A stretch of DNA of 64,000 nucleotides. Origin: Syntrophales bacterium. GTDB taxonomy: Bacteria; Desulfobacterota; Syntrophia; Syntrophales; UBA6807. The DNA is taken from positions 256,001 to 320,000 of the forward strand of contig JAXGPA010000002.1 of NCBI GenBank assembly GCA_040767195.1, read 5' to 3'. The notes beneath the pieces were generated by a model. That model saw only the letters and a program-made list of their open reading frames with translations, did not search any database and was not told the origin of the DNA. Below, piece after piece: positions 7,194-29,805 of this stretch (positions are counted from its first letter, which is position 1; every line of letters starts with the position of its first letter). The position numbers were made by a program, and so were the translations under genes.

Positions 7194-7319
7194 GACGGCT
7201 TTGTAAAAAGATCCAGAGGCAAGGCGCCCAAATCCCGAGGAATGAGACGTACTTATTGGTACGTCGCAATGACGAGGGATGAAGGGCAACGCAGCATATG
7301 GACTTTTTACAAAGTCGTC
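7194..7319 (+). repeat. MITE/REP-like element with terminal inverted repeats and a central hairpin
   Basis: gacggctttgtaaaaag ... ctttttacaaagtcgtc (16/17 match); central gacgtac-ttattg-gtacgtc hairpin. Confidence 0.75.
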
Positions 7320-8709
7320 ACTCTTCCGAACCGGATTTGCGAAGGCTGTACCGGATCATCTTGAGCTGGAGCCCTTTCCGGCTCAAGCCGAGCTGCTGGG
7401 CCGCCCGGCTCACGTTTCCCCCGCATTCCTCGAGGACCCGGACGATCATGTCCTTCTCGATTTCCTCCGTCCTTTTCCGGAGCACCTCCTTGAAGCTCCC
7501 GGGGCCCTCCAGGGCCGGTGGTTGTTCGTGAAACCGCCTCTCGGCAAAGCGGACCTCCTGGGGAAGGTCCTCTTCGGTGATCACGTCCCCCTTGGCAAAG
7601 AGGACAAGGCGTTCCAGGAGGTTCTCCAGCTCCCGGATATTTCCGGGCCAGTCGCAGCGGTTCACGAAAATGTCCCGGACGGAAGGGGACACGGCCCGGA
7701 CGTTTCGGCCCAGTTTGGCGTTGAATTTCCCGATGAAGTGTTCCACCAAAGCCTCGATGTCCTCCTTCCGCTCCCGAAGGGGGGGCAGGTGGATGGGCAC
7801 CACGTTGAGCCGGTAAAAAAGATCCTCCCGGAACTTGCCGTCTTTCACGGCCTGGGACAGGTTTCGGTTCGTCGCCGCGATGAGGCGGACATCCACCCGG
7901 ATCGTCCGGAGCCCGCCCACCCGCTCGAACTCCTGGTCCTGGATGACCCGGAGGAGCTTGACCTGCATGTCCTTGGGGAGATCCCCCACCTCGTCGAGAA
8001 AGAGCGTTCCCTGGTGGGCCAGCTCGAACCGGCCCGGTTTGCGGTGGACCGCCCCGGTGAAGGCGCCTTTTTCGTAGCCGAAAAGTTCGCTTTCCAGGAG
8101 GGTCTCCGCGATGGCGGCGCAATTGATCTTGATGAAAGGCTCATCCATTCTCGGGCTGTTCCGGTGTATGGCCTGGGCGATGAGCTCTTTCCCCGTTCCC
8201 GTCTCGCCGGTGATCAGGATGGTCGTCGTGGTCCTGGCGACCTTGGCGATGACATCGTAGATCCGGAGCATCTCCGCGCTGGTCCCGATGATGTTCAGAT
8301 GCTCGATGTCCCCACCCTCGGGAATGATCTCGGCCTCGGAAAGGATTCGTGTCCGCCACGCTTTCTGGATCACGTTCAGCAGGTCTTCCCGGTCGAAGGG
8401 TTTCGTGACGTAGTCGAAGGCCCCTTTTTTCAGGGCTTCAACGGCCGTGGAAACGGTGCCGTGGGCGGTGATGATGATGACGGGGATGCCGGGCCAGGCG
8501 TCCGTCACCCGGTCCAGGAGACCGAGCCCGTCGAGACCCGGCATTTTCAGGTCCGTCACGACGACGGCGATGTCCTCGTCCTTCTCGAGGACCTGGAGGG
8601 CCTCCAGCCCGTCCGCCGCCTTGAGGACGGAAAACCCCTCCTTCCGGAGCATGGCTTCCAGAACGAGGAGCATGTTGATTTCATCATCGACGATGAGGAT
8701 TTTTTTCAT
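7318..8709 (-). CDS. Sigma54-dependent response regulator (NtrC family: REC-AAA+-HTH)
   Basis: ILIVDDE, TDLKMP (phospho-Asp), GETGTGKE, GAFTGA, WPGNIREL, C-terminal Fis HTH; start at ATG 8709. Confidence 0.95.
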   Translation of the reverse strand: MKKILIVDDEINMLLVLEAMLRKEGFSVLKAADGLEALQVLEKDEDIAVVVTDLKMPGLDGLGLLDRVTDAWPGIPVIIITAHGTVSTAVEALKKGAFDYVTKPFDREDLLNVIQKAWRTRILSEAEIIPEGGDIEHLNIIGTSAEMLRIYDVIAKVARTTTTILITGETGTGKELIAQAIHRNSPRMDEPFIKINCAAIAETLLESELFGYEKGAFTGAVHRKPGRFELAHQGTLFLDEVGDLPKDMQVKLLRVIQDQEFERVGGLRTIRVDVRLIAATNRNLSQAVKDGKFREDLFYRLNVVPIHLPPLRERKEDIEALVEHFIGKFNAKLGRNVRAVSPSVRDIFVNRCDWPGNIRELENLLERLVLFAKGDVITEEDLPQEVRFAERRFHEQPPALEGPGSFKEVLRKRTEEIEKDMIVRVLEECGGNVSRAAQQLGLSRKGLQLKMIRYSLRKSGSEE

Positions 8710-8761
8710 GCCGCGGTGGGGTGGCCGTTCACACGGGTCCGTGTATTTTTTGTCGCCCCTC

Positions 8762-8790
8762 ACCCTATTATGGGAAGAAAGGGCTGTCAA
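8762..8790 (-). promoter_or_regulatory. Putative sigma70 promoter for the response regulator
   Basis: TTGACA-17 nt-TAGGGT on the minus strand in the kinase/regulator spacer. Confidence 0.4.
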
Positions 8791-8831
8791 GGGGATTCCG
8801 CCCGAGACCTCGCCGGGAGATGGACAGGGGA

Positions 8832-10340
8832 TCACAGGCGAACCCGAAAAGCCGTTCCCTTTCCCCGTTCCGTTTCCACCAGGATCTCGCCGCCGTTGTT
8901 CCGAACGATCCGCTCACAGATGGAAAGGCCGAGTCCCGTCCCCCCCCTCTTGGTGGTGAAGAAAGGCTTGAAGATGTCCGCCATGGCTTCTTCGGGGATC
9001 CCTTCCCCGGTGTCCCTGACGATGAGTTCGACGGATTCCTTCTTCCCCGTCCTGGAGCGCGCCGTTTCGAAGGTGAGTTCACCCCCCCGGGGCATGGCGT
9101 CCAGGGCGTTCAACCCCAGGTTGAGGAGCACCTGGATCATCTGTTCGCCGTCCACTCGAGCGGTTGGAAGGCCCTCGTCGAGTTCCGTGCGGATCGTCAC
9201 CCCCCGGGGCAGGCCCATGGTTTTGAGGAGGGAAACGACCTTTTCCACGATCCCGTTCAGGTTCTGCTTTTCCGGCCGGCCCGACTGGGGCCGGGCGTAG
9301 TTGAGGAACTGGGACACGACGGTGTTCAGGCGGTTCGTCTCCTCGACGATGACATCCAGGAGTTTCCGGCTCTCGCCGGCGTCGGCGTCGAGACGGAGAT
9401 ACTCGGCGGCCCCCTTGATGGATCCCAGGGGGTTCCGGATTTCATGGGCCAGCCCCGTGGCCATCTCTTCGAGGAGAAGGGCCCGCTCCCGCTCGATGTC
9501 CTCCAGGCGGAAGGAGCGGAAGATTTTTTTCCCCGCCGGGAAGAAACGCCGCAGAAGCCGCCGGAGAAGACCCCGGACGGGATTCATGAAAACGACGACA
9601 AGCCAGGCCAGGGCGAACACGGCGGGAAGAGGGATCGGGGACACGTTTCCCGAGAGGAAGGTGACCCCGTAATAGACGGTCATGACGAAGATCATGAGCC
9701 CGAAAGAGTAAAAAACCCGAAGGATGGCCTCGTTGAGCGCCGGAAGGCGGGGGTGGCGGAGGGAGAGGTACAGGAGATAAAGAAGAACCGCCTCCACGAG
9801 ATCGGAGAGGTGAAGGACGTCCTGCCGGCCCCGGAGGAGCCCCGTGTCAACGACGGTGAGCACAAAGGCGAGGGTGGCGACGGCGAGAAGGTAGGCCGCC
9901 TTCTTCTTTTCCACGGAGGGGACGTCACTGCGGATATAGACCAGAAGAGCCGCCAGGCAAAGGAGAAAAACGATTCCCCCGTAGCCCTGGTAAATGAGGA
10001 ACAGGTGGGGCCACCGTTCAGGGGGCAGGACAAGAAAGAGAAGCAGAAAAAGACTGATCCCCGCTGAAAGGAGGATTTCACGGTAGGAGATGAAGGTGCG
10101 TCCCCTGAGGTAGGCGCGGGTGAGAAAAAGCACCGAGGGCGGCAGGGTCAGGGTCGCGGCGGACCAAGCGGTTTTCCAGGCCGTCAGGGGGAAGACGCCG
10201 TCCAGGATGAGGCTCGTTTTCTGAACGAAAACGGCGACACAGACCAGGATAAAAGCGCTGACGAGCCGGTCCCTCTTTCCCTCGAAAAGGAGAAGGACGG
10301 CAAAAGAGAGGCTTGCCAGCGCGACGATAAGACGTTCCAT
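8832..10340 (-). CDS. Sensor histidine kinase with multi-TM N-terminal domain
   Basis: AHEIRNPLGSI H-box, NLGLNALDAM N-box, DTGEGI, FFTTK, GTGLGL; about 7 hydrophobic segments in the N-terminal half. Confidence 0.92.
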   Translation of the reverse strand: MERLIVALASLSFAVLLLFEGKRDRLVSAFILVCVAVFVQKTSLILDGVFPLTAWKTAWSAATLTLPPSVLFLTRAYLRGRTFISYREILLSAGISLFLLLFLVLPPERWPHLFLIYQGYGGIVFLLCLAALLVYIRSDVPSVEKKKAAYLLAVATLAFVLTVVDTGLLRGRQDVLHLSDLVEAVLLYLLYLSLRHPRLPALNEAILRVFYSFGLMIFVMTVYYGVTFLSGNVSPIPLPAVFALAWLVVVFMNPVRGLLRRLLRRFFPAGKKIFRSFRLEDIERERALLLEEMATGLAHEIRNPLGSIKGAAEYLRLDADAGESRKLLDVIVEETNRLNTVVSQFLNYARPQSGRPEKQNLNGIVEKVVSLLKTMGLPRGVTIRTELDEGLPTARVDGEQMIQVLLNLGLNALDAMPRGGELTFETARSRTGKKESVELIVRDTGEGIPEEAMADIFKPFFTTKRGGTGLGLSICERIVRNNGGEILVETERGKGTAFRVRL

Positions 10341-10391
10341 CAAGGGTGTCCCTTTTCCCTGCCTGTCTCTTCGTATTCCTTGCCCGGCAAA

Positions 10392-11968: not shown

Positions 11969-11986
11969 AACGAAACAGGGGCTCTC

Positions 11987-12002
11987 TGGCATAATATCTG
12001 CT
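11987..12002 (+). promoter_or_regulatory. Putative sigma54 (-24/-12) promoter of the fab cluster
   Basis: TGGCATAATATCTGCT: GG-N10-GC with TGGCA and TGCT flanks, 40 nt upstream of fabD. Confidence 0.6.
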
Positions 12003-12041: not shown

Positions 12042-12986
12042 TTGAACAATTCGAATATCGCCGTTGTTTTCCCAGGCCAGGGGGTCCAGCGGGCCGGCAT
12101 GGGGAAGGATTTTTTCGACCATATCCCGGAAAGCCGGCGGGTCTTCGAGGAAGCATCGGATGCTCTCGGGTGGGACGCGGCCGCCCTGTGCTTCGGGGAA
12201 GACAAGCGGCTCGACCTGACGGAATACGCCCAGCCCTGCATCCTGGCGACGGAAATCGCCATGCTCCGCGGCATCGAGAGCCGCTTCGATTTCAGGCCCC
12301 GATGGTTCGGCGGTCACAGCCTCGGCGAGTACACGGCCCTCATCGCCGCCGGCGCCCTGCCTTTTGCGGAGACTGTTAAAATCGTGCACACCCGGGGCCA
12401 TCTCATGCAGGAAGCGGCCCCCCTGGGAACGGGAACCATGGCGGCGGTCATCTCTCCCCGCCTGGACCTCGGCGTGGTGGAGCGGGCCATTGGGAATCTT
12501 CCCATCGATGTGGCCAACGACAACTCGGCCCAGCAGGCGGTCATCAGCGGGGACAGGAGGGCCATGCCCGAGGCGGAGGAACGGCTTGCCGGAGCACTGG
12601 CGGGAGAGGGGTTTTTCCGTTTCGTGACCCTCAACGTGAGCGCCCCCTTTCACAGCCGCTTCATGGCCACCATCCAGGATGTTTTCCGGGAAGCCCTGGA
12701 ATTTCTCCGGCGGTTCCTTTCGCCCGCCAACGCGGGCACCGTCACGTCCAACTTCACCGGGCACTTCCACTCGGAAAACATGAACCGGATCATCGAACAT
12801 CTCACCCTGCAGCTGAGCCACACCGTCCGGTGGCGGGACAACATGAAGACCCTGGCGGAAAGGGCTGAAACGATTTATGAAATCGGCCCCGGCCGGCCTC
12901 TCCGGGACTTCTTCCGGACCCTCGATCTGGCCTGCCAGTCCGTGACCACCCTGTCCTCGGCGGAGAGACTTTTCAGAGCGAATTGA
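12042..12986 (+). CDS. fabD: Malonyl-CoA:ACP transacylase
   Basis: FPGQG, AQPCI, GHSLGE, RG..MQ, VSAPFHS, TVRW; TTG start after AAGAGG. Confidence 0.9.
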   Translation: MNNSNIAVVFPGQGVQRAGMGKDFFDHIPESRRVFEEASDALGWDAAALCFGEDKRLDLTEYAQPCILATEIAMLRGIESRFDFRPRWFGGHSLGEYTALIAAGALPFAETVKIVHTRGHLMQEAAPLGTGTMAAVISPRLDLGVVERAIGNLPIDVANDNSAQQAVISGDRRAMPEAEERLAGALAGEGFFRFVTLNVSAPFHSRFMATIQDVFREALEFLRRFLSPANAGTVTSNFTGHFHSENMNRIIEHLTLQLSHTVRWRDNMKTLAERAETIYEIGPGRPLRDFFRTLDLACQSVTTLSSAERLFRAN

Positions 12987-13010
12987 TCCCCTGCGCACAT
13001 CCCGCGGTCA

Positions 13011-13042
13011 TCCCCTCTCCCCCCGGGGCGGGGAATTTTTTT
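13011..13042 (+). terminator. Putative intrinsic terminator between fabD and the acyl-CoA dehydrogenase gene
   Basis: tcccctctcc-cccc-ggggcgggga GC hairpin followed by attttttt. Confidence 0.4.
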
Positions 13043-13058
13043 GGTAAAGGACTCGACC

Positions 13059-14258
13059 ATGAATTTTGAATTGTCGGAAGAGCAGAAAACTTACACGGAA
13101 ACGGTTGGGAAGTTCGTCCGAAAGGAGATCCTCCCGGATGTGCTGGCCCTTGAACAGGCCCACGGGTTCCCGTGGGCCGTCGTCACGAAAGCCTGGGAGC
13201 TCGGATTTCTCAATCTTTCCGTCCCCGAATCCGTCCGGGGGTACGCCGTCGACGCCGTCTCCACGGCCCTCATTGTCCGGGAGCTTTCCTACGGCGACAC
13301 GGGCATCTCCACCTCCGCCATGTGCAACGACCTGGCCAACGTGGTCATCGCCCGGCACGGCACCCCGGAACAGCGGGAACGGTTCCTCCGCCCCTTCGTG
13401 GACGCCCCCCTCCTGGCTTCCTTCTGCCTCACCGAACCGGGTGCGGGCTCGGACAACGCGGCCATGACCACCTTCATCCAGAAGAAGGAAGGCGGCCGGT
13501 ACGTCCTGAACGGCGAAAAGTGCTTCATCACCAACGGGTCCTTCGCCTCCCAGTTCACCGTTTTCTGCAAGGTGGGGAACCCGAAGGGCCTCATGATGGC
13601 CTGCGTCATCGTCCCCCAGGACATCGTGTCCCGGGGGGAGACGGTGGAACACCCCAACGGGTCCCGGGAGATCCGCCTTCCCGGCGGCGGGACGATCCGC
13701 ACGGGGAAACCGGAAGACAAGCTCGGACAGAAGCTCTCCAACACCGCCACGGTGACCTTCGAGGACGTTCCCGTCGACGACGGCCAGATCATCGGCGACC
13801 GCAGGAGAGGCTTCCAGTACGTCGTGGACGTCCTGGATTTCGCCAGGCCCATGGTGGCCGCCATCGGCGTGGGCCTCGCCCGGCGGGCCTTCGATGTCAC
13901 CCTGGACTATACCCGGACCAGGAAACAATTCGGGCAGAGGATCTGCGACCTCCCCGTCGCCCGGGACATGCTCGTCAAGATGTGGAAAAAGGTCGCGCTT
14001 TCCGAGCTGGCCCTCATGCAGGCGGCGTGGAAGGTGGAAACGGGCGCGGAGGACCGGGGAATCTACGCCTCCCTGGCGAAGAACGCCGCCGCCGAGGCCG
14101 CCCTTTTCTGCGCCAACGAGGGACTCCATCTTCACGGCGGCTACGGGTTCATGTCCGAGTACGAGATTTCCAAGCTGGCCCGGGACGCCCACATCATCGA
14201 CATCTACGAGGGCGTCCGGGAGGTCCAGGACATGATCATCGGCCGGGAAATCGTTTAG
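13059..14258 (+). CDS. Acyl-CoA/acyl-ACP dehydrogenase family protein
   Basis: FCLTEPGAGSD, LNGEKCFITNG, KLG, RKQFG, HGGYGF, IYEG (catalytic Glu); start at ATG 13059. Confidence 0.9.
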   Translation: MNFELSEEQKTYTETVGKFVRKEILPDVLALEQAHGFPWAVVTKAWELGFLNLSVPESVRGYAVDAVSTALIVRELSYGDTGISTSAMCNDLANVVIARHGTPEQRERFLRPFVDAPLLASFCLTEPGAGSDNAAMTTFIQKKEGGRYVLNGEKCFITNGSFASQFTVFCKVGNPKGLMMACVIVPQDIVSRGETVEHPNGSREIRLPGGGTIRTGKPEDKLGQKLSNTATVTFEDVPVDDGQIIGDRRRGFQYVVDVLDFARPMVAAIGVGLARRAFDVTLDYTRTRKQFGQRICDLPVARDMLVKMWKKVALSELALMQAAWKVETGAEDRGIYASLAKNAAAEAALFCANEGLHLHGGYGFMSEYEISKLARDAHIIDIYEGVREVQDMIIGREIV

Positions 14259-14271
14259 GGGACGGCGGATC

Positions 14272-15261
14272 ATGCTCTACATACACGGCATGGGGCACTT
14301 CCACCCCGAAAACGTCATCACGAACCGGTTCATCGAGGATCTGGACATCGGGAGCAGCGAGGAATGGATCCAGGAGCGGGTGGGAATTCACGCCCGGCGG
14401 ACCGCCCTCGACCTCGACTACATCCGGACGACGAAAAACCGGGATCCCCGGGCGGCCGCCGCGGCAAGCCACTACACCAACGCCAGGACGGGAGCCCTGG
14501 CCGCGGAAATGGCCCTGGACCGGGCCGGGCTCACGCCCGGAGACATCGGCCTCGTCCTTTCCGGCAGCTCCGCCCCGGACCACCTGACGCCGGCGGAGGC
14601 GGCCACCGTCGCCGGGGAACTGGGAATCGAGGCGCCCTCCCTGGACCTGAATTCCGCCTGCAGCACCTTCGCCATGCAGGCGGCCTGGCTCAGCTGGATG
14701 CGGCCGGAGAAGCTGCCCCCCTTCATTCTCCTGGTCCAGCCGGAAAACCTGACCCGGAGCGTCGATTACAGCGACCGGCGGGTGGCCCCCCTGTTCGGGG
14801 ACGGGTCGAGCGCCGCCGTGGTGTCGGCGACGGTCCCCTCGAAAATCCGCATCCTCGACGCCTTCTGCGGCTCCACCCCCTCCCAGTGGGACAAGGTCTG
14901 CATTCCCCGGTTCTCCCATTTTTACCAGAACGGAAATGCCGTCCAGGGCTTTGCCATCCGCCGGAGCACCGATTCCCTGAAACAGCTCGAGGACAAATAC
15001 GGAAAGGGAAAGGGGCCCTTTGTATTCATCGGCCACCAGGCCAATTACGGCATGCTCCGGACAGTGTGCGAGCGGAGCGGCATCCCCGACGAAAACCACT
15101 GGTACAACGTGGTGGATTACGGCAACACGGGCTGCTCCAGCGGTCCCGCCGTTCTGAGCCAGCGGTGGGAGCGGCTGAACCCGGGGGACCGTATCGCCAT
15201 GGTCCTCGTGGGGTCGGGGCTTTCCTGGGCCAGCCTCATGATCGCGGTGGCCAGGGCGTAA
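14272..15261 (+). CDS. 3-oxoacyl-ACP synthase III (FabH-like)
   Basis: Cys-His-Asn triad: SACS, HQAN, GNT; LFGDG motif. Confidence 0.85.
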   Translation: MLYIHGMGHFHPENVITNRFIEDLDIGSSEEWIQERVGIHARRTALDLDYIRTTKNRDPRAAAAASHYTNARTGALAAEMALDRAGLTPGDIGLVLSGSSAPDHLTPAEAATVAGELGIEAPSLDLNSACSTFAMQAAWLSWMRPEKLPPFILLVQPENLTRSVDYSDRRVAPLFGDGSSAAVVSATVPSKIRILDAFCGSTPSQWDKVCIPRFSHFYQNGNAVQGFAIRRSTDSLKQLEDKYGKGKGPFVFIGHQANYGMLRTVCERSGIPDENHWYNVVDYGNTGCSSGPAVLSQRWERLNPGDRIAMVLVGSGLSWASLMIAVARA

Positions 15262-15301
15262 TCGAAAAAATGGCTATTTTCAAAATGCTTAAGGGATCAG
15301 G

Positions 15302-15895
15302 ATGACATACGAAGAATTCAACGGGAAATCGTCTTTCACCCAGGAGGAACTCCTGGCCTTCTCTTACGGCCGGCTCGTGGACAACCCGCCGGCGGCTTTC
15401 GACGCCCGGCTTCCGGCTCCGCCCTTTCTCATGATCGACCGGATCACGGAAATCAACGCCGACGGGAAAAGAGGGGAAATCCGGGCGGAGCAGGACGTGC
15501 GCCTCGACGCCTGGTATTTTCAGTGCCACATGCCCGGGGACCCCGTCCAGCCGGGGTGCCTGTGCGTCGACGCCATCTGGCAGCTTCTGGGCTTCTACTG
15601 CGTGTGGCGGGGCGGCCAGGGCGCCGGAAGGGCTCTGGGCTGCGAGGAAGTCCAGTTTTCCGGGCAGATTCGTCCCCGGAATCGAATCGTCACCTATCAC
15701 GTGGAAATCCGGCGCTTCGCCATCCTGAAGGACTCGGGAAGCTCCATCACCATCGGGGACGGTCACATCGCCGTGGACGGCGAATCCATCATGACCGTCC
15801 GGAACGCCAAATCGGGAACGTTCCAGGGAATCACCTATCCCGATTACCCGCTGGCCACCCCGCTCAGCCGGGGGGGGCTGATGAGCAAGGAATGA
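15302..15895 (+). CDS. fabA: 3-hydroxydecanoyl-ACP dehydratase/isomerase (FabA type)
   Basis: LPAPPFLMIDRI, WYFQCHMPGDPVQPGCLCVDAIWQLLGF (His/Asp dyad), GRALG..EV.FSGQ. Confidence 0.8.
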   Translation: MTYEEFNGKSSFTQEELLAFSYGRLVDNPPAAFDARLPAPPFLMIDRITEINADGKRGEIRAEQDVRLDAWYFQCHMPGDPVQPGCLCVDAIWQLLGFYCVWRGGQGAGRALGCEEVQFSGQIRPRNRIVTYHVEIRRFAILKDSGSSITIGDGHIAVDGESIMTVRNAKSGTFQGITYPDYPLATPLSRGGLMSKE

Positions 15896-15958
15896 TGACG
15901 GCTTTTTAGAAAGCCGCCCGAAGAAAACGTTTCAGGAGTGCTTGTGAGCAAAGGAATA

Positions 15959-16687
15959 ATGGAAGAAAAAAAAGTCGCCGTCGTCACCGGAGCCTCCGGC
16001 GGGATCGGAAGCGCCTGCTGCCGCGCCCTGGCGGAAGAGGGATTTCGTGTGGGCATTCACTACCGGACGGGAAAGGAAGCGGCGGAAAGACTGTCCAAGA
16101 AACTTTCCGGGAGTTTCCTCCTTCACGCCGATCTGGGAGACCCCGAAGGGATCGACCGGATGGTGGAGGAGATCCGGAAAGGGGCCGGACGGGTCGATGT
16201 CCTCGTCAACAACGCGGGCCTTTCGATCAACCGGGACATCCACACCATGAAGATGGAGGAATTCGACGCCCAGCGGCAGATGGCCCGGGGCGCCTGGTAT
16301 CTCACAAAACGGGTTCTCCGGCTCTTCATGCTCCGAAGAAACGAAGGGCGGATCATCACCATCTCCAGTGTCGTCGGCCACACGGGGAACGCCGGGCAGA
16401 TCCCCTACACCATGGAGAAGGCGGCCATGGACGCCATGACCCGCTCCCTGGCCCGGGAACTCGCCGGACGGAACATTCTCGTCAACGCCGTCGCGCCGGG
16501 CTTCATCGAGACGGCCATGACGGCGGTTCTTCCGGAAGAGATCCAGGCAGGCATCGTGAAGGACATTCCCCTCGGGCGGATCGGCCGCCCCGAGGAAGTC
16601 GCCGAGGTGGTCGCCTTCCTCGCCACCAAAGGGAGCTACATCACGGGCACGGTCATTCACGTGAACGGAGGGCTCTATGGCGGCTGA
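15959..16687 (+). CDS. fabG: 3-oxoacyl-ACP reductase (SDR)
   Basis: TGASGGIG, VNNAG, SSVVG..GNAGQ, Y...K, APGFIET.MT, VNGG. Confidence 0.82.
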   Translation: MEEKKVAVVTGASGGIGSACCRALAEEGFRVGIHYRTGKEAAERLSKKLSGSFLLHADLGDPEGIDRMVEEIRKGAGRVDVLVNNAGLSINRDIHTMKMEEFDAQRQMARGAWYLTKRVLRLFMLRRNEGRIITISSVVGHTGNAGQIPYTMEKAAMDAMTRSLARELAGRNILVNAVAPGFIETAMTAVLPEEIQAGIVKDIPLGRIGRPEEVAEVVAFLATKGSYITGTVIHVNGGLYGG

Positions 16688-17153
16688 CGCGACGACGCGA
16701 AGGGACATCCTCGAGAGAGTTCCCCAGAAACCCCCGTTTCGTTTCATCGACCACATCCTGGAACTGGACGATCACCACGTGGTGGGGTCCTATCGATTCC
16801 GGGAGGACGAGTTTTTTTACCGGGGACATTTCCCGGGCTATCCCGTGACACCGGGAGTGATTCTCGTGGAGACCATGGCCCAGACCGGCGTCGTCGCCTT
16901 CGGTCTCTATCTCCTGGAGCGGCAGGGGATCTCCCCCGGCGACATGGACCGCATGGTAACCCTCTTCACCCTCATGGATAACGTGGAGTTTTATGAAATC
17001 GTCAAGCCCGGGGACCGTGTCCTGGTTCACGGTGAAAAGGTGTACTTCCGCAGAGGAAGCCTGAAAACGTCCGTCCGCATGACCCTGGAGACGGGGCGAC
17101 TCGTCTCCTCGGGAACGCTGGCGGGAATGGGAGTCAAAAAAAATGAAGCGTAG
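16677..17153 (+). CDS. 3-hydroxyacyl-ACP dehydratase (FabZ-like)
   Basis: PF.FID, GHFPGYPVTPGVILVETMAQ (His/Glu dyad), VKPGD. Confidence 0.82.
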   Translation: MAADATTRRDILERVPQKPPFRFIDHILELDDHHVVGSYRFREDEFFYRGHFPGYPVTPGVILVETMAQTGVVAFGLYLLERQGISPGDMDRMVTLFTLMDNVEFYEIVKPGDRVLVHGEKVYFRRGSLKTSVRMTLETGRLVSSGTLAGMGVKKNEA

Positions 17154-18435
17154 AGTCGTTATAACGGGCATGGGGGTCGCCGCCCCGAACGGCCACGGCC
17201 TCGAGGCCTTTGAAAAGGCCCTCCGGGAGGGCCGGTCGGGCATCCGTTTCGTCCCGCAGCTGAAGGAACTGAACTTCGGCTGCCAGATCGGCGGCATCCC
17301 CGAAAATTTCGAGGAAATCAGGAAAAGCTACTTCGACTTCGAGAAGCTCATGTCCATCAACGACAACATCGGGTTCTGCTCCGTGTCGGCGGTGGACGCC
17401 TGGAAGGACGCCGGGTTCGATCTTCCCGATCCGGACGACGACGAGACGGTGGACTGGGACACCGGGGCCATCCTCGGCTGCGGCATCGGCGGCATGGACA
17501 CCATCGCCGAAAAGGTCGTTCCCACGGTGAAGGACGGGAGAGTGCGGCGCATGGGCAGCCGCATCGTGGAGCAGGTCATGAACAGCGGGACGAGCGCCCG
17601 GGTGGGAGGCCTTCTCGGCCTCGGGAACCAGGTCACGTCCAATTCCGCCGCCTGCAGCACCGGGACGGAGGCCATCGCCGACTCCGCCTGGCGGATCCGC
17701 CACGGCCTGGCGAAACGGATGCTTGCCGGGAGTTCCGAAGGGGCGTCGCCTTTCATCTGGGCGGGGTTCGACGCCATGCGGGTCATCGCCCGGAAGTTCA
17801 ACGACACCCCCGAGACGGGGTCCCGTCCCATGAGCGCCACTGCCAACGGGTTCGTTCCCGGTTCGGGCGGCGCGGTCCTGGTCCTGGAGGACCTGGAAAC
17901 GGCCCTCCAGAGAAACGCCCGGATATACGCCGAGATCGCCGGCATGGCCGTGAACTGCGGCGGCCAGCGCAAGGGCGGTTCCATGACGGCCCCCAATCCC
18001 GAGGGCGTCCGGCGCTGCATCCTGGGGGCTCTCGCCGACGGCGGCATCGCCCCCGGCGAAATCGACGCCATCAACGGTCATCTGACGGCCACCTTCGCCG
18101 ACCCATACGAGGTCAAAAACTGGTCCGACGCCCTGAAAAGGGACCCGGACGATTTTCCCTGGATCAACTCCACCAAATCCATGATCGGCCACTGCCTGGG
18201 GGCGGCGGGGTCCATCGAGTCCGTGGCGGCGGTCCTTCAACTTTACAGGGGTTTCCTCCACCCCTCCATCAACTGCGAGGACATTCACCCTGACATCGAG
18301 GCGTTCACCGAGAGAATACCCAGAAAGGTCCTGGATTTTCCCGACATGAGGATACTCGCCAAGGCCTCTTTCGGATTCGGCGACGTGAACAGCTGCATTA
18401 TTTTCAAAAAATGGGAAAACGGAAAGGAGACATAA
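17143..18435 (+). CDS. Beta-ketoacyl-ACP synthase (FabF/FabB family)
   Basis: RRVVITG, SAACSTG (Cys), INGHLTAT (His), KSMIGHCLGAAG (His), SFGFG. Confidence 0.9.
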   Translation: MKRRVVITGMGVAAPNGHGLEAFEKALREGRSGIRFVPQLKELNFGCQIGGIPENFEEIRKSYFDFEKLMSINDNIGFCSVSAVDAWKDAGFDLPDPDDDETVDWDTGAILGCGIGGMDTIAEKVVPTVKDGRVRRMGSRIVEQVMNSGTSARVGGLLGLGNQVTSNSAACSTGTEAIADSAWRIRHGLAKRMLAGSSEGASPFIWAGFDAMRVIARKFNDTPETGSRPMSATANGFVPGSGGAVLVLEDLETALQRNARIYAEIAGMAVNCGGQRKGGSMTAPNPEGVRRCILGALADGGIAPGEIDAINGHLTATFADPYEVKNWSDALKRDPDDFPWINSTKSMIGHCLGAAGSIESVAAVLQLYRGFLHPSINCEDIHPDIEAFTERIPRKVLDFPDMRILAKASFGFGDVNSCIIFKKWENGKET

Positions 18436-18438
18436 AAA

Positions 18439-18687
18439 ATGGACGAAAACAAGATATTGGAAGAAATAAAGAACATCCTGCGACCCTATGTGAAAGACGG
18501 GGCCCTGCTCGACCAGGCGACGACGGAAACACACATCCTGGACGATCTGAAAGTGAACTCGGCCCGTCTCGTCGATGTCATCATCAAGTGCGAGGACATC
18601 TTCGGCCTCACCATCGAGGACGACGAGGCGGACAGGATCCGGACCATCGGCGACGCCGTGAAGCTGATCCAGGAGAAGCTTTCCTGA
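18439..18687 (+). CDS. Acyl carrier protein (divergent)
   Basis: 82 aa acidic protein; DDLKVNSARLVD with the attachment Ser; EDIFGLTIED and IRTIGDAV. Confidence 0.85.
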   Translation: MDENKILEEIKNILRPYVKDGALLDQATTETHILDDLKVNSARLVDVIIKCEDIFGLTIEDDEADRIRTIGDAVKLIQEKLS

Positions 18688-18691
18688 CGAA

Positions 18692-19435
18692 ATGATGGAA
18701 GGGAAAATCGAAAAGCGGGTCCGGCGCCAGATCCTGGTGGGCCGGCTAGCCGTTTTTTTAACGGCCTTCCTGACTTTTCTGGCCATCCGGCTGTTGCGGT
18801 ACCGCGTCAGGAACCTCAAGGCGTTCCGGGAGCAGATAAAAGGGTTTTGGCGGGAACATGACGGGCCATGGCTCATCTGTCCCAATCACCTGACCATGAT
18901 CGACTCGGTTGTCGTGGCCTGGGCCCTTGCGCCTCTCCGGGAATACCTCGTTCATTTTCACAGGCTCGCCTGGAATCTCCCCGAAAGGGACAACTTCCAG
19001 AAAAACCCGGTCCTCGCCGTCCTGTGTTATTTGACCAAGTGCCTGCCCGTCCACCGGAGGGGAAGCCGGGAAGAGGTCCGGGAAACCCTGGACACATGCG
19101 CCTTCCTCCTCAACCGGGGGGAGAGCATCGTCATTTTTCCCGAGGGGGGGCGGTCCCGGACAGGCCGGGTGGACCGGGAACGGGTTTCCTACGGTGTGGG
19201 CCGCCTTTACACGCAAAATGAAAATTGCCGTATCCTGTGTCTCCATATCCGGGGCGACGGACAAAAAACGTGGAGCGACATCCCGAAGCCTGGGGAGCGT
19301 TTCACCGCCGCGGCGGCGGTTTTACGGCCAGACCCGGGGAACCGGGGACTCCGGGCCCAGCGGGCCTGCGCCGAAGAGATCATGGAAAAGCTCATCCAAA
19401 TGGAGGAGGCCTGGTTCCTTGGCCCTGGGAAATGA
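18692..19435 (+). CDS. Lysophospholipid (1-acyl-sn-glycerol-3-phosphate) acyltransferase family
   Basis: NHLTMID (HX4D), PVHR, IFPEGGRS; N-terminal hydrophobic helix. Confidence 0.85.
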   Translation: MMEGKIEKRVRRQILVGRLAVFLTAFLTFLAIRLLRYRVRNLKAFREQIKGFWREHDGPWLICPNHLTMIDSVVVAWALAPLREYLVHFHRLAWNLPERDNFQKNPVLAVLCYLTKCLPVHRRGSREEVRETLDTCAFLLNRGESIVIFPEGGRSRTGRVDRERVSYGVGRLYTQNENCRILCLHIRGDGQKTWSDIPKPGERFTAAAAVLRPDPGNRGLRAQRACAEEIMEKLIQMEEAWFLGPGK

Positions 19436-20060
19436 TATCGTCGACCTGAAAGACCCCTTCGCCCGGGAAAAGGGCCGGTGCCGGCGCTACGCCGACCGGG
19501 TCCTGGGTTCACGGGAAATCTCATGGTGGGAAAAAGACGGCGATCCCGCCCGTTTCCTGTGGGCCTGCTGGTCCGTCAAGGAGGCAGCCTACAAGGCCTT
19601 CCGGAAAGCCGCCGGCCCGATTCCCTTCCTGCCCCGAAACATCGAAACGACGGACCTTACGGGGGAGGAAAGGGGAAAATTTCGGGGAACCGTGTGGACC
19701 CCCTGGGGGAACGCGTGCTTCCGCTTATTCTTGGAGGAAGATTACGTGCATGCCCTTTGCGCGCCGTCAGGAGACGCCGTTCTGGACAGGGCGCGATGGC
19801 ATGTCGAAGAAATGCCTCCCCCCGGGGGAAAGGCGATGTCCCGGGAGATCGCCGACCCCTCCCGGGAAGTCCGCAAGGCGACGGTCCGCGTTCTCGCCTC
19901 CCTTCTCGGCATTCACGAAAAGAGCCTCCGGATCCTTCGGAACCGCGAAAACACGGGGTCCCCCGTCCCGAGGCTTTTCATCGGCGAAAGGGAGTCGCCG
20001 GCGGACCTGACCCTCAGCCACGACGGCCGTTACGGGGCCTTCGCTTTTGCCATGGATTGA
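19419..20060 (+). CDS. 4'-phosphopantetheinyl transferase
   Basis: GNDIVD, WSVKEAAYKA, LSHDG; TTG start at 19419 behind GGAGGAGG. Confidence 0.82.
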   Translation: MALGNDIVDLKDPFAREKGRCRRYADRVLGSREISWWEKDGDPARFLWACWSVKEAAYKAFRKAAGPIPFLPRNIETTDLTGEERGKFRGTVWTPWGNACFRLFLEEDYVHALCAPSGDAVLDRARWHVEEMPPPGGKAMSREIADPSREVRKATVRVLASLLGIHEKSLRILRNRENTGSPVPRLFIGERESPADLTLSHDGRYGAFAFAMD

Positions 20061-20124: not shown

Positions 20125-20922
20125 TCACTTTTTTCCGACGGCCTTGAAGAAGGTGTAGCAGAACACACCGTCCCGCTCCGCCGTCCGGTACAGGTCGGCA
20201 ATCCCCTGATTGAAAACCTCCTGGCCGATGATTCCCGCCGCCAGGGCGGCTTCGCGAACCCCCTCGATCATGGCGGTGAAGGTCTTTTTCGTGAAGCCGT
20301 CGACCAGGCCGGGTCGGCTGGAATCGACATAGACCATTCGCGGGGACACGTGAACGCCCTCGAAGCCCGCCCGGCAAAGAAGGGGATAAAGCTCTCTCCC
20401 AATCATGGCATTCCCGCCGGCCTGACGCTGCAGCTCGACCTGGCATCGAATCGCCCGGCGGGCCGCCTCGCTGTCCGGGTGAAAATACGCCGACCCGTGA
20501 TCCCCCTCGATGACCGTGATGGTGCCGCCTTTCTTCACATGGCGCTTCAGGGCCACCAGGGCCTCAAGGGGCCGGGCAAGATGCTCCAGGACGAAACAGA
20601 CGAAAACGTGGTCGAAAAAACCGGGCTCGAAAGGCAAATGGAAAATGTCCGCCCGCTGAAACCGGACGTTTCCCAAACCTTCCTCTGCGACCTTTCGTTC
20701 CGCTTCGGCCAGGGAGATTTCTGAAATGTCAACGGATGTTATGAGCGCTCCCGGGCTGTTTCTCGCCAGGGTGACCGTCTGCGCCCCGACACCGCAGCCT
20801 GCCTCGAGGACATGGCTTCCCCCCGGGTAAAAGGTATCCGCGTGGAGCAGTTCCGTCAGCGTGGAGGCCTGGTCCTGGAGCCGGATGTTTTCACGATCAC
20901 CGTAGCCGTGAACGTATTTCAC
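20125..20922 (-). CDS. Class I SAM-dependent methyltransferase
   Basis: VLEAGCGVG motif I, VDIS, FDHVF..FVLEHL, GG.I; GTG start after AGAGGAG. Confidence 0.85.
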   Translation of the reverse strand: MKYVHGYGDRENIRLQDQASTLTELLHADTFYPGGSHVLEAGCGVGAQTVTLARNSPGALITSVDISEISLAEAERKVAEEGLGNVRFQRADIFHLPFEPGFFDHVFVCFVLEHLARPLEALVALKRHVKKGGTITVIEGDHGSAYFHPDSEAARRAIRCQVELQRQAGGNAMIGRELYPLLCRAGFEGVHVSPRMVYVDSSRPGLVDGFTKKTFTAMIEGVREAALAAGIIGQEVFNQGIADLYRTAERDGVFCYTFFKAVGKK

Positions 20923-21165
20923 GCATCGATCTCCTCTGTCATTCCTGTCGTCTCTCCTTTTCTTTGCCCTGGCCGTCCCCCCGGGATCAGGATGGCAATG
21001 AAACGATATCTTTCTTTCCGGGCACAGGATGAAAGGAAGAGGTCAGGTAGTGCTTAAACCTCGCTTTTCCGCCTTGAAAACAGCCTTCTAAGGCTGAAAT
21101 TAAAGCAAAAATAGGCATATTATTATACGATTCAGAATACTTGCCTTGGTCCGACCCCCTGACAT

Positions 21166-21855
21166 TCATTTTCTGGCAATGCCGATCATGATGTAACGCC
21201 ATGCCTCGGGTACAAGCCTGTCCGCGACGAGCCTGTCCATACTCCCCAGAACGGTCCTCTGGAACGGCGTCCTTCCGAAACCGCCGAGAAAGCCCGCCGT
21301 GGTGAAATCGACCTCGGAAAAGACGGAGAGATACGCCAGCATTTCCCGGACGGTCACGTATCGCCAGGTTTTGCCCCACGGGACGAACCGGCTTCTGAAA
21401 AACCGATGAAAGGGGGAAGCCGCCAGATTTTCCGCAAACCACAACTCGCCCCCTCTTTTGAGGGCCTTGTGGATTTCATGGACGGCCTTCACCTGATTCT
21501 CCCGGTTATTCCCCCGGCCGACACCCCCCAGAACCGACTTGAACAGAATCACGTCGAATTCCTGACGGAAGGGAATGTCGAGGGCGTTGAGCGCCCCGTA
21601 TCGGATCCGGTCCGCGACCCCGTAGCGCCCGTGTTTCTCCCGGGCCTCCCGGGACGGGCCTTCAAGATCGGTGCACAGGACCTCCATGCCCGTGGAGGCG
21701 GCCCACAGGGAAAGCCCGCCGTGCCCGCACCCGATCTCCAGCGCCCGGAGGGGCACGGTATTCAAATGGGTGTGTTCGCGCCAGTATTTCAAGGAAACCG
21801 CCCAATTCGGTACATCCCATTCAATGACGTCTTCAAGGGGGGGAATCGGTCTCAT
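21166..21855 (-). CDS. Class I SAM-dependent methyltransferase
   Basis: ALEIGCGHGG, TDL, FDVI, LKRGG.L.F.E. Confidence 0.8.
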   Translation of the reverse strand: MRPIPPLEDVIEWDVPNWAVSLKYWREHTHLNTVPLRALEIGCGHGGLSLWAASTGMEVLCTDLEGPSREAREKHGRYGVADRIRYGALNALDIPFRQEFDVILFKSVLGGVGRGNNRENQVKAVHEIHKALKRGGELWFAENLAASPFHRFFRSRFVPWGKTWRYVTVREMLAYLSVFSEVDFTTAGFLGGFGRTPFQRTVLGSMDRLVADRLVPEAWRYIMIGIARK

Positions 21856-27244: not shown

Positions 27245-27895
27245 ATGAAATGGATTCAGATCCTCATCCGGATTTTCATCGATCCTGAAACGAAGGAAAC
27301 CCTCGAAAAAGCGCCGGAGAAGATGAGGGGATTCCAGGGTGTGGGAAATGTCCTGGCCGGCCACTTCCGAAGACCGACCCTCTTCAATCCCGCCGGCCTT
27401 CTGGCGGCCCTGGTCTTCACCGGGACGCTCTTTCATCCCTGGTGGGTCGCCTTCGTTTACAACAACGAGTACACCATAGGGGCCTACGCCTTCATTCTCA
27501 GTCACAATCTCCCGTCCGAAGGGGTGGTGTACGTCATTGAAACGCCCGTCGCTGCCGTGATTCTCCTGGTTCTTCTTTTGGCGGGATACCTCTTTCTCGC
27601 CTTCTGGGGAAGCACCATGAAGGGGAAAAAAGGGAAGCTCATTCTTTTCTGGACAGGGGTCTTCATGCTTCTGTACACCGCCGGGTTCTATGGGGCCCTC
27701 CTTTTCGCGACCCACCGGGTAGACGTGCCCGTGACAGGATACAGCTACATTGTCCACACCGTTCAGGTGGACATCTACATGGCCTTCACCCGGGCGTATG
27801 TCACCGCCGTCGGGGCCGCCGTCGCCTGTCTCCTGTCTCCCCTTCTCCACGGGCGTCCCGCCATTCCCCTCCACCGCAGGAAGGGAACCCCGTGA
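27245..27895 (+). CDS. Hypothetical integral membrane protein (about 4 TM)
   Basis: Open frame with four hydrophobic segments; its stop overlaps the next start (GTGA); start may be 27215, 27239 or 27245. Confidence 0.7.
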   Translation: MKWIQILIRIFIDPETKETLEKAPEKMRGFQGVGNVLAGHFRRPTLFNPAGLLAALVFTGTLFHPWWVAFVYNNEYTIGAYAFILSHNLPSEGVVYVIETPVAAVILLVLLLAGYLFLAFWGSTMKGKKGKLILFWTGVFMLLYTAGFYGALLFATHRVDVPVTGYSYIVHTVQVDIYMAFTRAYVTAVGAAVACLLSPLLHGRPAIPLHRRKGTP

Positions 27896-29805
27896 ACATC
27901 CCCTACGAGCGGCTCTTCGAACGGAATTACGGAATCTTTTCGTTCCGGGAACAGGAAAGGATCCGGAAAAGCCGGGTTCTCATCGTCGGCTGCGGCGGCA
28001 TCGGGGGGACGGTGGCGGTCATGCTCGCCCGGTCGGGGGTGGCGTCCTTCACCCTTGTCGACTACGACGTCTATTCCCCCTCCAACATGAACCGCCAGGC
28101 CGGGTGCTTCACCGACACCCTGGGAAAACCGAAGGTCCTGATCATCGCCGACATGATACGCCGGATCAACCCGGCGGCCCGGGTCGACTCCCACAACCGT
28201 CTTCTCAGCCACGACGAGATCGCCGACCTGATAGAAGACGCGGACCTCGTCTTTCCCGCGGCGGACGACTTCGCTTTCAGCCTCTTCGTCTTCCGTGACG
28301 CCCGCCGCCTCGGGAAGCCGGCCCTCCTTGTCGTTCCCTCAGGAACATGGGCCCACGTGAGCCTCATCGGGCCTCACGGACCCTCCCCTGAAAGGATCGA
28401 GGGGGTTCCTGCCCTGGACTCGTACGAGTCGCTCCGGGAAACCCTGGAAATCCGGAAATACAAGCTGGGCACTTATTTTTACGTCTTCCAGGGAAACTGG
28501 AGGATCGGCTATTACCGGGATTTCGTGGAGGGAACGGCCCGGCTCGCCCAGGTCTGCCCCACCGTCTGGATCTCTTCCGCCCTGGGCGCCCTGGAAGTCC
28601 TGAAATACCTGAGCGGCCGGTGGCCTCCCGTGGCCTCCCCCTTCTACTGGCATGTGACGGAAAAAAAGATCTCCCTCCGAAAGGTGAACGGCCTGTCTTC
28701 CGACACCCTTCTCGCCTGGCAGCGCCGTGTCATGTGGGCCGTCTTCCATTCCCCCCTGGCCCCCCTTCAGGAAAGCCTTCAGAAAATCTGGTGGAAGGCT
28801 TATCTCCGGTGGGGACGATACCGGGAAAGGGGCGTGGGAAAAGAGGGTCCGGAAGAAACGGCGGACCCCGTCGACGGTTCCTATGAAGCCCTTTTCTGCC
28901 GGAATCTCGGGATCCTCACGGAGAAGGAACAGGAAGCCATCCGCAAGACCCGGGTTCTCATCGTCGGCGATTCGGGCATGGGGGAAACCCTGGCGGTCCT
29001 CCTGGCTCGGTGCGGCTTCGAGAGATTCACCCTTGCCGGCGACGGGATTTACACCGCCGGGGACATGAACCGCCAGATCGGATGTTTCAGCGACACGGTG
29101 GGCCGGCGAAAAGGGGAGGTGACGTCGGAAATGATCCGGTCCGTCAACCCGGCCGCGCGGGTCGAGATCCTGGAAGAAAACCCCGGGGAAGACGCCATGG
29201 ATGCCCTGGTGTCGGCGGCCGACCTCGTCATCCCCGCCGTGGACGACCTTTCATACAGCGTTCTCCTCTTCCGGGCGGCGAAACGGTGCGGCCGGACGGC
29301 CCTCCTTTGCCTTCCCTCCGGTGTCATGGGATGGGTGAGCGTCTTCTTCCCGGAGGGACCTTCCCTGGAAAAAATGCTCGGAATTCCCGACACGGACTAC
29401 CAGGGCCTGGTCAACGTCATGAAAACGAAGGAGTACCAGTGCGCCCAGTACCACTGCATCACCGACGGCGACTGGCGGATGGACTGGTTTTTCGATTATT
29501 TCCGGGGGCGGCGGCCGCTGCCCCTCTTGTGCCCGGCGGAATGGCTTCTCGTGAGCCTGGCGGCTCTTGAGGCCGTGAAGGTCGCCTCGGGCCGGTGGAG
29601 GCCCCTGCGGGCCCCCCGGTGCTGGCTCCTGAAAAACGGCCGGGTGTCCGTCTCCCGGTTCAGCCGTTTCATTTCCTGGCACCGCCGGCTGGGATGGGCC
29701 CTTTTCGGTTCGCCAAGGGGCATCCGGGCCCACCGGCTGACCCACCTCTTCTGGAAGCGGCTCTTCCGCTTCCTCGCGAAAGAGCGGAGAACAGCGGGCG
29801 ATTGA
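27892..29805 (+). CDS. Tandem-duplicated ThiF/MoeB (E1-like) adenylyltransferase
   Basis: Two homologous halves: RN.G....EQ..IRK.RVLIVG, MNRQ, INP/VNP, A.DD; first half has GCGGIG and DYD...SN, second has GDSGMG. Confidence 0.85.
   Translation: MNIPYERLFERNYGIFSFREQERIRKSRVLIVGCGGIGGTVAVMLARSGVASFTLVDYDVYSPSNMNRQAGCFTDTLGKPKVLIIADMIRRINPAARVDSHNRLLSHDEIADLIEDADLVFPAADDFAFSLFVFRDARRLGKPALLVVPSGTWAHVSLIGPHGPSPERIEGVPALDSYESLRETLEIRKYKLGTYFYVFQGNWRIGYYRDFVEGTARLAQVCPTVWISSALGALEVLKYLSGRWPPVASPFYWHVTEKKISLRKVNGLSSDTLLAWQRRVMWAVFHSPLAPLQESLQKIWWKAYLRWGRYRERGVGKEGPEETADPVDGSYEALFCRNLGILTEKEQEAIRKTRVLIVGDSGMGETLAVLLARCGFERFTLAGDGIYTAGDMNRQIGCFSDTVGRRKGEVTSEMIRSVNPAARVEILEENPGEDAMDALVSAADLVIPAVDDLSYSVLLFRAAKRCGRTALLCLPSGVMGWVSVFFPEGPSLEKMLGIPDTDYQGLVNVMKTKEYQCAQYHCITDGDWRMDWFFDYFRGRRPLPLLCPAEWLLVSLAALEAVKVASGRWRPLRAPRCWLLKNGRVSVSRFSRFISWHRRLGWALFGSPRGIRAHRLTHLFWKRLFRFLAKERRTAGD

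Follow-up and report, generated by a model that had tools for sequence, protein, structure and literature searches.

A sigma-54-linked fatty acid synthesis cassette of Syntrophales in which an acyl-CoA dehydrogenase-like flavoprotein is the proposed enoyl-ACP reductase

Which enzyme reduces enoyl-acyl carrier protein (ACP) in a fatty acid synthesis cassette that lacks a known enoyl reductase? The question is raised by ten genes at positions 12042..20060 of a 64,000-nucleotide stretch, referred to here as the window, of contig JAXGPA010000002.1 from a Syntrophales bacterium (assembly GCA_040767195.1). These genes encode the parts of a type II system for making fatty acids (FAS-II) together with an acyl-CoA dehydrogenase (ACAD)-like flavoprotein. 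According to the accessible text of PMC9671860, each turn of the cycle requires an enoyl reductase, whose gene, as in Enterococcus faecalis, can share an operon with that of the dehydratase/isomerase. A preliminary description of the window had taken the cassette for a second, dedicated system whose special and probably unsaturated acyl chain ends up on a membrane lipid. We propose instead, with a probability of roughly 0.6, that the sigma-54-driven cassette is the main FAS-II of Syntrophales, that it has displaced the canonical one, and that the ACAD acts as an enoyl-ACP reductase fed by electron-transfer flavoprotein (ETF).

The ten open reading frames (ORFs) described previously were all present on the plus strand within the expected span, and Pfam and NCBIfam supported the family assignment of each product (Table 1). 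Where the genes do not overlap, they are separated by 3 to 72 bp; fabG/fabZ and fabZ/KAS (the β-ketoacyl-ACP synthase gene) each overlap by 11 bp and the genes for the acyltransferase and the 4'-phosphopantetheinyl transferase (PPTase) by ~17 bp. The GC content of the cassette is the same as that of the window. Start codons were refined from the sequence for the ACAD (ATG 13059) and fabG (ATG 15959), and the PPTase was assigned a TTG start at 19419, preceded by the ribosome site GGAGGAGG, in place of the GTG ORF at 19194. Only FabA exceeded a curated NCBIfam cut-off (PRK05174, 205.5 versus 124); the other nine proteins are divergent and scored under their cut-offs, the KAS reaching 285 versus 494 with the FabF model and 234 versus 630 with the FabB model. 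The active-site motifs were intact in a motif check (the YxxxK of FabG being read off the translation), and the cassette has the discrete FabD, KAS III, KAS I/II, FabG, dehydratases, and ACP of a type II system. In agreement with the preliminary description, neither Pfam nor NCBIfam detected a FabI, FabK, FabL, or FabV gene within the cassette.

Comparison of homologous cassettes revealed that the position of the ACAD gene is occupied in some of them by a gene for a short-chain dehydrogenase/reductase (SDR). In a sample of 301 genomes of the phylum, the cassette KAS was found in 14, comprising 8 Syntrophales and 6 others. The 8 Syntrophales genomes carry the ACAD; the other 6 carry a FabL-like SDR and no ACAD ortholog, the SDR gene lying between fabD and fabH or fabG. 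The cassette of one of these genomes (G226) has the SDR for the ACAD and is otherwise identical in gene order to the window. The SDR was confined to these 6 of the 301 phylum genomes and was found in none of 101 Syntrophales genomes sampled evenly across the order, and the only ten ACAD orthologs of the phylum sample were all from Syntrophales. A search with a FabH alignment yielded 529 metagenome loci; in the best 80 of these, the gene preceding fabH encoded the ACAD in 69 and the SDR in 10 and was off-contig in 1; no locus had both, and there was no third kind of slot filler. FabL (PRK08063) was the first or second NCBIfam match for three of three SDRs, yet at 106 to 121 bits versus a cut-off of 328. 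The Y-x6-K motif of the SDR, found in 108 of 119 homologs, aligns with that of a FabI, and three of four SDRs passed the Pfam cut-off for trans-2-enoyl-CoA reductases. Because related cassettes hold a FabL/FabI-like SDR at this position, the ACAD itself is the best candidate for the enoyl reductase that seems to be lacking.

The rest of the genome was searched for other FAS-II genes. The source genome, which is 98.83% complete, contains a canonical locus, fabD-fabG-acpP-fabF (C1:264594-267823), in which fabD, acpP, and fabF exceeded their cut-offs and the distance between yceD and fabD is no more than 214 bp. PlsX was not found in the genome (control positive in 9/14), and there was no FabH-type or FabA/Z-type gene outside the cassette. 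None of the seven SDRs of the genome matched FabI or FabL. FabV was not found, in a search whose control was silent both in this genome and in the order and whose PF12241 domain was positive in 1 of the 301 phylum genomes (G139). The genes lpxA, lpxC, and lpxD are all present; only 106 bp separate lpxD from lpxA, and the usual position of fabZ is therefore empty. Since the genome has no other FabH, FabZ/FabA, FabI, or PlsX, the canonical locus is unable to complete the cycle. Thus, the separate housekeeping locus considered in the preliminary description does exist, but in a form devoid of plsX and fabH. As for an ordinary enoyl reductase elsewhere in the genome, the absence of FabI, FabL, and FabV matches leaves a single FabK-like protein below cut-off (see below).

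To define the status of the canonical locus in the order, 20 loci (L273 to L292) were drawn from 57 canonical fabF matches. All 20 retained acpP-fabF, and none contained plsX, fabH, fabZ, or fabI (for plsX, there was no gap of >~600 bp). Both fabD and fabG were intact in 6 loci, one of them was kept in 8, and neither in 6, so that fabD and/or fabG had been lost from 14 of the 20. Canonical FabF was not found at an E value of 1e-130 in 4 of 61 genomes, all four of which carry the cassette. These results point to ongoing decay of the canonical fab locus in the order. Exactly two FabA/Z matches were present in 54 of the 101 order genomes (the positions of the pairs were not checked individually). 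On the basis of the absences from the source genome and the losses from canonical loci, the cassette is the only complete-looking FAS in the source genome, and probably in many relatives too. Other lipid genes of the source genome include PlsB, PlsC, YihG, and FadD-type ligase genes and a separate AcpS gene (C10:112255-112653). AccA/AccD motifs were not found in it by simple patterns, and malonyl-CoA may be supplied by a fused biotin carboxylase-carrier protein and a PCC/MmdA-type carboxyltransferase (C8:199302-200930 and C6:37781-39547). A 144-bp remnant of fabD was seen in one of the canonical loci (L282).

Conservation of the cassette was investigated in the best 80 of 446 ACAD loci, which were 67 to 86% identical and came mostly from Syntrophales when an order or family name was available. 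In all 53 loci with sufficient flanking sequence, the ACAD was accompanied by fabH, fabG, fabZ, KAS, ACP, acyltransferase, and PPTase genes; since this eight-gene set is shared by every one of them, the grouping is not due to chance. The gene fabA was present in 51 of the 53 and fabD in 36, and 34 loci had all ten genes arranged exactly as in the window. The cassette is thus a conserved, self-contained FAS-II unit that includes a private ACP, PPTase, and acyltransferase, as first described, and the linkage of the ACAD to the acyltransferase held throughout the flanked loci. In the order, the ACAD was detected in 94 of the 101 genomes, with one match in each. Neither chain-length factor or tailoring genes nor a second KAS-like family was conserved around the 80 loci. 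Aryl-polyene and type II polyene polyketide synthases (PKSs) rely on a heterodimer of ketosynthase and chain-length factor and have no reductive step. This identity was ruled out by the single KAS with its intact triad and by the lack of a chain-length factor, and the reductase-type SDR of homologous cassettes also counts against it. In one genome (G042), the cassette fabG appeared to be split into short pieces (L118:11064-11333).

The ACAD displays the three-domain fold of its superfamily (Pfam N, M, and C domains). Its best sequence matches were medium-chain acyl-CoA dehydrogenases (MCADs; PDB 3MDD, 1EGE, and 1UKW; E = 3e-72), and its predicted structure, with a mean local confidence score (pLDDT) of 88, aligned with MCAD in Foldseek with a template modeling (TM) score of ~0.87 to 0.89 at 33 to 35% identity. 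The best NCBIfam match was AcrC, below cut-off (247.5 versus 640 bits). The FCLTEP-AGSD motif, which binds flavin adenine dinucleotide (FAD), and the YEG motif containing E384 were invariant in 31 of 31 aligned ACADs. E384 occupies the position of the catalytic glutamate of MCAD (E376), and chemistry at the α,β carbons is therefore expected; the RP-motif arginine is kept as well. Two arginine motifs, G-[DN]-R-R-x-G-F (before the position of MCAD F245) and YEG-x-R-E (in the catalytic loop), were found in all 120 close homologs, which are 71 to 96% identical and hence not independent; the motifs occurred in none of 12 other ACADs (nine paralogs and three sisters). These arginines presumably lie near the substrate entrance, as judged from MCAD numbering, and basic residues at the thioester entrance would suit an acidic ACP partner.

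Known enoyl-ACP reductases have either an SDR fold with a Y-x6-K or Y-x8-K motif or a TIM barrel binding flavin mononucleotide (FMN). The ACAD is neither; it belongs to the ACAD superfamily and to no known enoyl-ACP reductase family. Its nearest sisters (41% identity) lie behind genes for TetR-like regulators, outside any fab cluster, and the cassette context suggests that β-oxidation of CoA thioesters is not its role. A complex prediction with two copies of the ACAD, FAD, and the cassette ACP gave a score of 0.01, which we counted neither way. The genome encodes three EtfAB pairs, none of them adjoining the ACAD. One cluster (L268, C6:160585-170700) contains genes for an acyl-CoA synthetase, EtfBA, a membrane iron-sulfur oxidoreductase, a probable outer-membrane transporter, and a long-chain acyl-CoA ligase. 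It is a candidate both for supplying the ACAD with electrons and for taking up fatty acids.

Pattern searches of upstream regions pointed to sigma-54 control. Of 72 upstream regions from related loci, 35 contained the strict pattern and 64 a relaxed one, compared with 0 and 1, respectively, of the 72 reverse-complement controls. The sensor kinase and NtrC-type activator genes found upstream in the window accompany the operon in 32 of the 48 related loci having at least 8 kb of upstream sequence, and the pair probably regulates the operon in response to a signal that the kinase would sense. Sigma-70 and terminator scans were at chance level. Between fabD and the ACAD gene, a GC-rich hairpin with a stretch of T residues behind it (13018-13040) might serve in attenuation or processing of the transcript; the number of such sites in the scan was also at chance level. 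Of four RNA runs inspected for contigs, two looked flat like DNA and two covered only short pieces of the cluster at a depth of 2 to 8.

Proteome data for Syntrophus aciditrophicus (PMC8942843) provided a link to a cultured relative. The locus tags SYN_01693 to SYN_01700 were taken as orthologs of cassette genes by order, names, and lengths, not by sequence comparison; the numbering matches the order of the cassette genes exactly. In the accessible part of Tables S1 and S2 of that study, SYN_01700 (FabD), SYN_01699 (ACAD), SYN_01697 (FabA), and SYN_01693 (ACP, 82 residues) were detected in a benzoate coculture grown in mineral medium, the ACAD with 8 peptides and 27 spectra in addition to a spot on a two-dimensional gel. 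The same portion of the tables contained no entry for SYN_01698, SYN_01696, SYN_01695, SYN_01694, or SYN_01692 and no row matching the words acpP or fabF.

Together, these results suggest the following scheme. The PPTase would prime the cassette ACP, and FabD would load malonyl groups. Initiation would be carried out by the FabH-like enzyme, elongation by the KAS, ketoreduction by FabG, and dehydration by FabZ and FabA. The ACAD, acting in the reductive direction, would convert trans-2-enoyl-ACP into acyl-ACP and receive the electrons from an ETF whose genes lie at another locus; the exchange in the slot and the absences from genomes make this its probable reaction. Reduction is favored over oxidation because oxidizing acyl-ACP would only remake the trans-2-enoyl product of FabZ and FabA. 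Oxidation of acyl-ACP is costly for a syntroph, and reduction is the missing step. The HX4D acyltransferase would transfer the chains to glycerolipids alongside PlsB, PlsC, and YihG. The cassette FabA has the His/Asp dehydratase-isomerase feature of the FabA/FabB anaerobic unsaturation pathway and may divert cis-unsaturated chains. An unsaturated product, as the preliminary description predicted, is accordingly plausible in part, but by this ordinary anaerobic route. The leftover fabD-fabG-acpP-fabF genes might have a narrower job, such as the provision of (R)-3-hydroxyacyl-ACP to LpxA and LpxD for lipid A, and the sigma-54 two-component system would tune cassette expression. It is slightly better than an even bet that the ACAD represents one more class of enoyl reductase for FAS-II, unrelated in structure to the others, ACAD-fold and ETF-fed, which would have been recruited from β-oxidation via an arginine patch for ACP docking and would close the main cycle of the order, possibly with a gain of energy through electron bifurcation or with use of a pool of reduced ETF.

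Several observations weigh against this proposal. The function of the cassette SDR, which falls below the FabL cut-off, is itself only predicted. A quick KAS tree (40 of 110 ACAD rows and all 12 SDR rows) needed two changes of label, one change not being excluded; the slot exchange therefore amounts to one or two events, not 79 independent ones. Residues F245, D253, and R388, which we take to be the CoA contacts of MCAD, are kept in the ACAD, and no etf gene family was among the conserved neighbors of the 80 loci. In the order, 36 of the 101 genomes have 3 or 4 FabA/Z matches, and a stronger, more canonical FabH-type domain was found elsewhere in 28 by hand count. Three g209 genomes of this sample have no ACAD. 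In G230 (L156:5577-7743) and G283 (L157:5517-7675), fabD and the ACAD gene are kept at normal identity and followed by an unrelated SDR gene; the other cassette genes were absent from the fetched regions, and the cassette KAS was not found. The fabH gene of G347 is reduced to a remnant, with most of it apparently lost, and fabD was in neither of the loci examined in G305. Thus, as the g209, G230, and G283 exceptions indicate, some lineages live without an intact cassette and probably depend on fatty acid uptake.

The main counter-argument for the source genome is its FabK-like flavoprotein (C8:8715-9770), which scored 254.7 bits versus a TIGR03151 cut-off of 453 and whose best PDB match is a FabK structure (E = 3e-61). 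FabK-like flavoproteins below cut-off occur in 83 of the 101 order genomes. The cassette could therefore be the main FAS with enoyl-ACP being reduced in trans by such a protein or by an unrecognized enzyme, the ACAD acting on CoA esters, for instance to turn crotonyl-CoA into a primer for FabH. The location of the ACAD gene immediately before fabH, the fact that the closest solved structures are CoA enzymes, and the persistence of fabD and the ACAD in G230 and G283 without the cassette ACP are consistent with this explanation. We nevertheless consider it unlikely. None of the 101 genomes encodes a FabK exceeding the cut-off, the copy number of the FabK-like genes varies from 0 to 10, and the gene of the source genome adjoins one for an enoyl-CoA hydratase. 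In addition, the ACAD is kept in 15 of the 101 genomes (three of them single-contig) that have no FabI, FabK-like, FabV, or FabL-like match (FabMG, medium-chain dehydrogenase/reductase-type, and old-yellow-enzyme reductases were not searched for), and the basic residues that are invariant in it are suited to an acidic ACP. FabV and FabL-like SDRs were found in none of the 101 genomes. FabI-type matches were present in 9, the seven inspected lying in mobile, pta-ack, or separate-cluster contexts; a small FAS-like cluster of one genome (G078, L132, C4:7843-11583) combines FabG-like, FabZ-like, and FabI-like genes.

The explanation of the preliminary description, an accessory line for a special, probably unsaturated chain on one lipid, with the ACAD desaturating acyl-ACP or the chain staying unreduced and bulk synthesis residing elsewhere, appears similarly improbable. 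Housekeeping pathways do not usually have a sigma-54 system of their own, and this point favors an accessory role over the one that we propose, as do the dedicated kinase and regulator, the private ACP, PPTase, and acyltransferase, the divergence of the enzymes below housekeeping cut-offs, and the other PlsB, PlsC, YihG, and AcpS genes of the genome. ACADs that oxidize carrier-bound substrates also exist, dehydrogenase structures for prolyl-peptidyl carrier protein being among the matches. Against these points, the source genome has no other complete FAS, the canonical locus is decaying in relatives, a reductase-type SDR fills the ACAD slot of homologous cassettes, the ACAD is near-universal and single copy, and no chain-length factor or tailoring genes are conserved. 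Still less likely is that the ACAD is an enoyl-ACP reductase in a conditional back-up system, switched on through sigma-54 when fatty acids are scarce, with scavenged or CoA-linked chains normally entering lipids via FadD and PlsB/PlsC. The FadD-type ligase and PlsB, the persistence of cassette-losing lineages, and sigma-54 control would fit such a system, but the ACAD is retained in 94 of the 101 genomes and the four presumed cassette proteins were seen in mid-log growth on benzoate (PMC8942843, accessible part). Since the benzoate medium lists no long-chain fatty acid, the proteome does not separate a back-up system from a main FAS.

The proposed system shares FabD, KAS III, KAS I/II, FabG, FabZ- and FabA-type dehydratases, and ACP with canonical FAS-II having a FabA/FabB branch (Escherichia coli; fabI-fabN-fabO in E. 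faecalis). It differs from it in that a single sigma-54 operon holds all the steps, along with a dedicated ACP, PPTase, and acyltransferase, and by the ACAD that takes the reductase slot in place of FabI, FabK, FabL, or FabV. In comparison to MCAD, the ACAD has the same fold, catalytic Glu, and Arg of the RP motif but a biosynthetic context, the invariant Arg248, Arg249, and Arg387, an insertion of 15 to 20 residues in the β domain, and a reaction that is proposed to run backward on a thioester of ACP. Bcd-EtfAB, CarCDE, and AcrC (PDB 4L1F, 5OL2, and 6FAH) likewise use the ACAD fold to reduce α,β C=C bonds in anaerobes, as proposed here. Unlike the cassette ACAD, which has no adjacent etfAB, these enzymes are co-encoded with etfAB, and they act on short CoA esters in catabolism. 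MbtN, FkbI, and LipB are carrier-protein-dependent ACADs that oxidize their substrates. FabX of Helicobacter pylori, from a different family, is reportedly also a flavoenzyme oxidizing a carrier-tethered thioester. PigA (5ZW0) and AnaB (4IRN) are flavoenzymes acting on carrier-tethered thioesters, as is proposed for the cassette ACAD, but they oxidize them in specialized pathways and were weaker matches than MCAD (E = 1e-35 to 1e-28). ACADs are established as ETF-coupled enoyl-CoA reductases (accessible text of PMC13126070).

The SDR version of the cassette in other Desulfobacterota (L116 to L121) places a non-homologous enzyme in the same slot between fabD and fabH/fabG. The sigma-54 pattern was found in none of six upstream regions of this type, for which gene starts were approximate. 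The SDR-type cassette of G037 (L121:11093-13081) has no acyltransferase gene, and its PPTase consists of 663 residues with PPTase-like matches at both ends, on either side of a middle part assigned to no family. A protein of the L121 cassette belongs to a 90% cluster that includes named Desulfatibacillum proteins. An ether-lipid pathway was also considered and rejected, the ether bonds of Desulfatibacillum being ascribed to Ger and no such cluster being named in the accessible text of PMC11150832.

Table 1. Positions of the cassette genes and of the regulatory features upstream of them in the window
Feature	Position	Strand	Basis and remarks
NtrC-type sigma-54 activator (receiver, Sigma54_activat, Fis helix-turn-helix)	7318..8835	-	Pfam; probable operon regulator
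Membrane sensor histidine kinase, ~7 hydrophobic segments	8832..10343	-	Pfam; Atlas score 0.90; HisKA_7TM-like N terminus as a lead only
Sigma-54 -24/-12 promoter-like site (GG-N10-GC)	11986..12002	+	Pattern search; 56 bases before fabD
fabD, FabD-like malonyl-CoA:ACP transacylase (GHSLG)	12042..12986	+	Pfam/NCBIfam, motif; in 36/53 related loci
ACAD, MCAD-like flavoprotein, proposed enoyl-ACP reductase	13059..14258	+	Catalytic E384; invariant R248/R249/R387/K171; slot exchange with FabL-like SDR
fabH, FabH-like KAS III (Cys-His-Asn triad)	14272..15261	+	Sole FabH-type gene of the genome
fabA, FabA-type dehydratase/isomerase (His/Asp)	15302..15895	+	PRK05174 over cut-off; missing from 2/53 related loci
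fabG, FabG-like 3-oxoacyl-ACP reductase (YxxxK)	15959..16687	+	Pfam/NCBIfam
fabZ, FabZ-type dehydratase (His/Glu)	16677..17153	+	With fabA, the only FabA/Z-family genes of the genome
KAS, elongating ketosynthase of KAS I/II type (Cys-His-His), without chain-length-factor partner	17143..18435	+	Pfam/NCBIfam, motif
ACP, 82 residues, Ser41 in NSA motif	18439..18687	+	Pfam/NCBIfam
Acyltransferase, HX4D (PlsC/tafazzin-like) glycerolipid type, one N-terminal hydrophobic segment	18692..19435	+	Pfam, motif
PPTase, predicted to act on the cassette ACP	19419..20060	+	Pfam

Two methyltransferase genes located downstream on the minus strand (20125-21855) are not conserved neighbors of the cassette. Elsewhere in the window, a 637-residue ThiF-family protein with two matched stretches is encoded at 27892-29805, and an ordinary superoperon comprising rpoB-rpoC, tuf, ribosomal protein genes, secY, and rpoA occupies 38935-63735 on the minus strand.

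A search whose coverage mostly left out the subscription literature turned up no description of this operon or of SYN_01699, no report of an ACAD serving as enoyl-ACP reductase, and no lipid data for Syntrophales. New here are the gene absences at the level of whole genomes, the decay seen in the canonical locus, and the link to proteome data. Enoyl-ACP reduction is the FAS step with the most non-homologous solutions, and many genomes of anaerobes have no recognized gene for it. If our proposal is correct, the ACAD would be a new enzyme class closing this gap in the pathway for an order with a central place in methanogenic food webs, and lipid synthesis would be tied to the ETF-based redox economy of organisms living near the thermodynamic limit. 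The proposal is directly testable in cultured S. aciditrophicus, in which the presumed gene is SYN_01699. The near-universal ACAD may have been miscounted as a β-oxidation gene in annotations of Syntrophales genomes.

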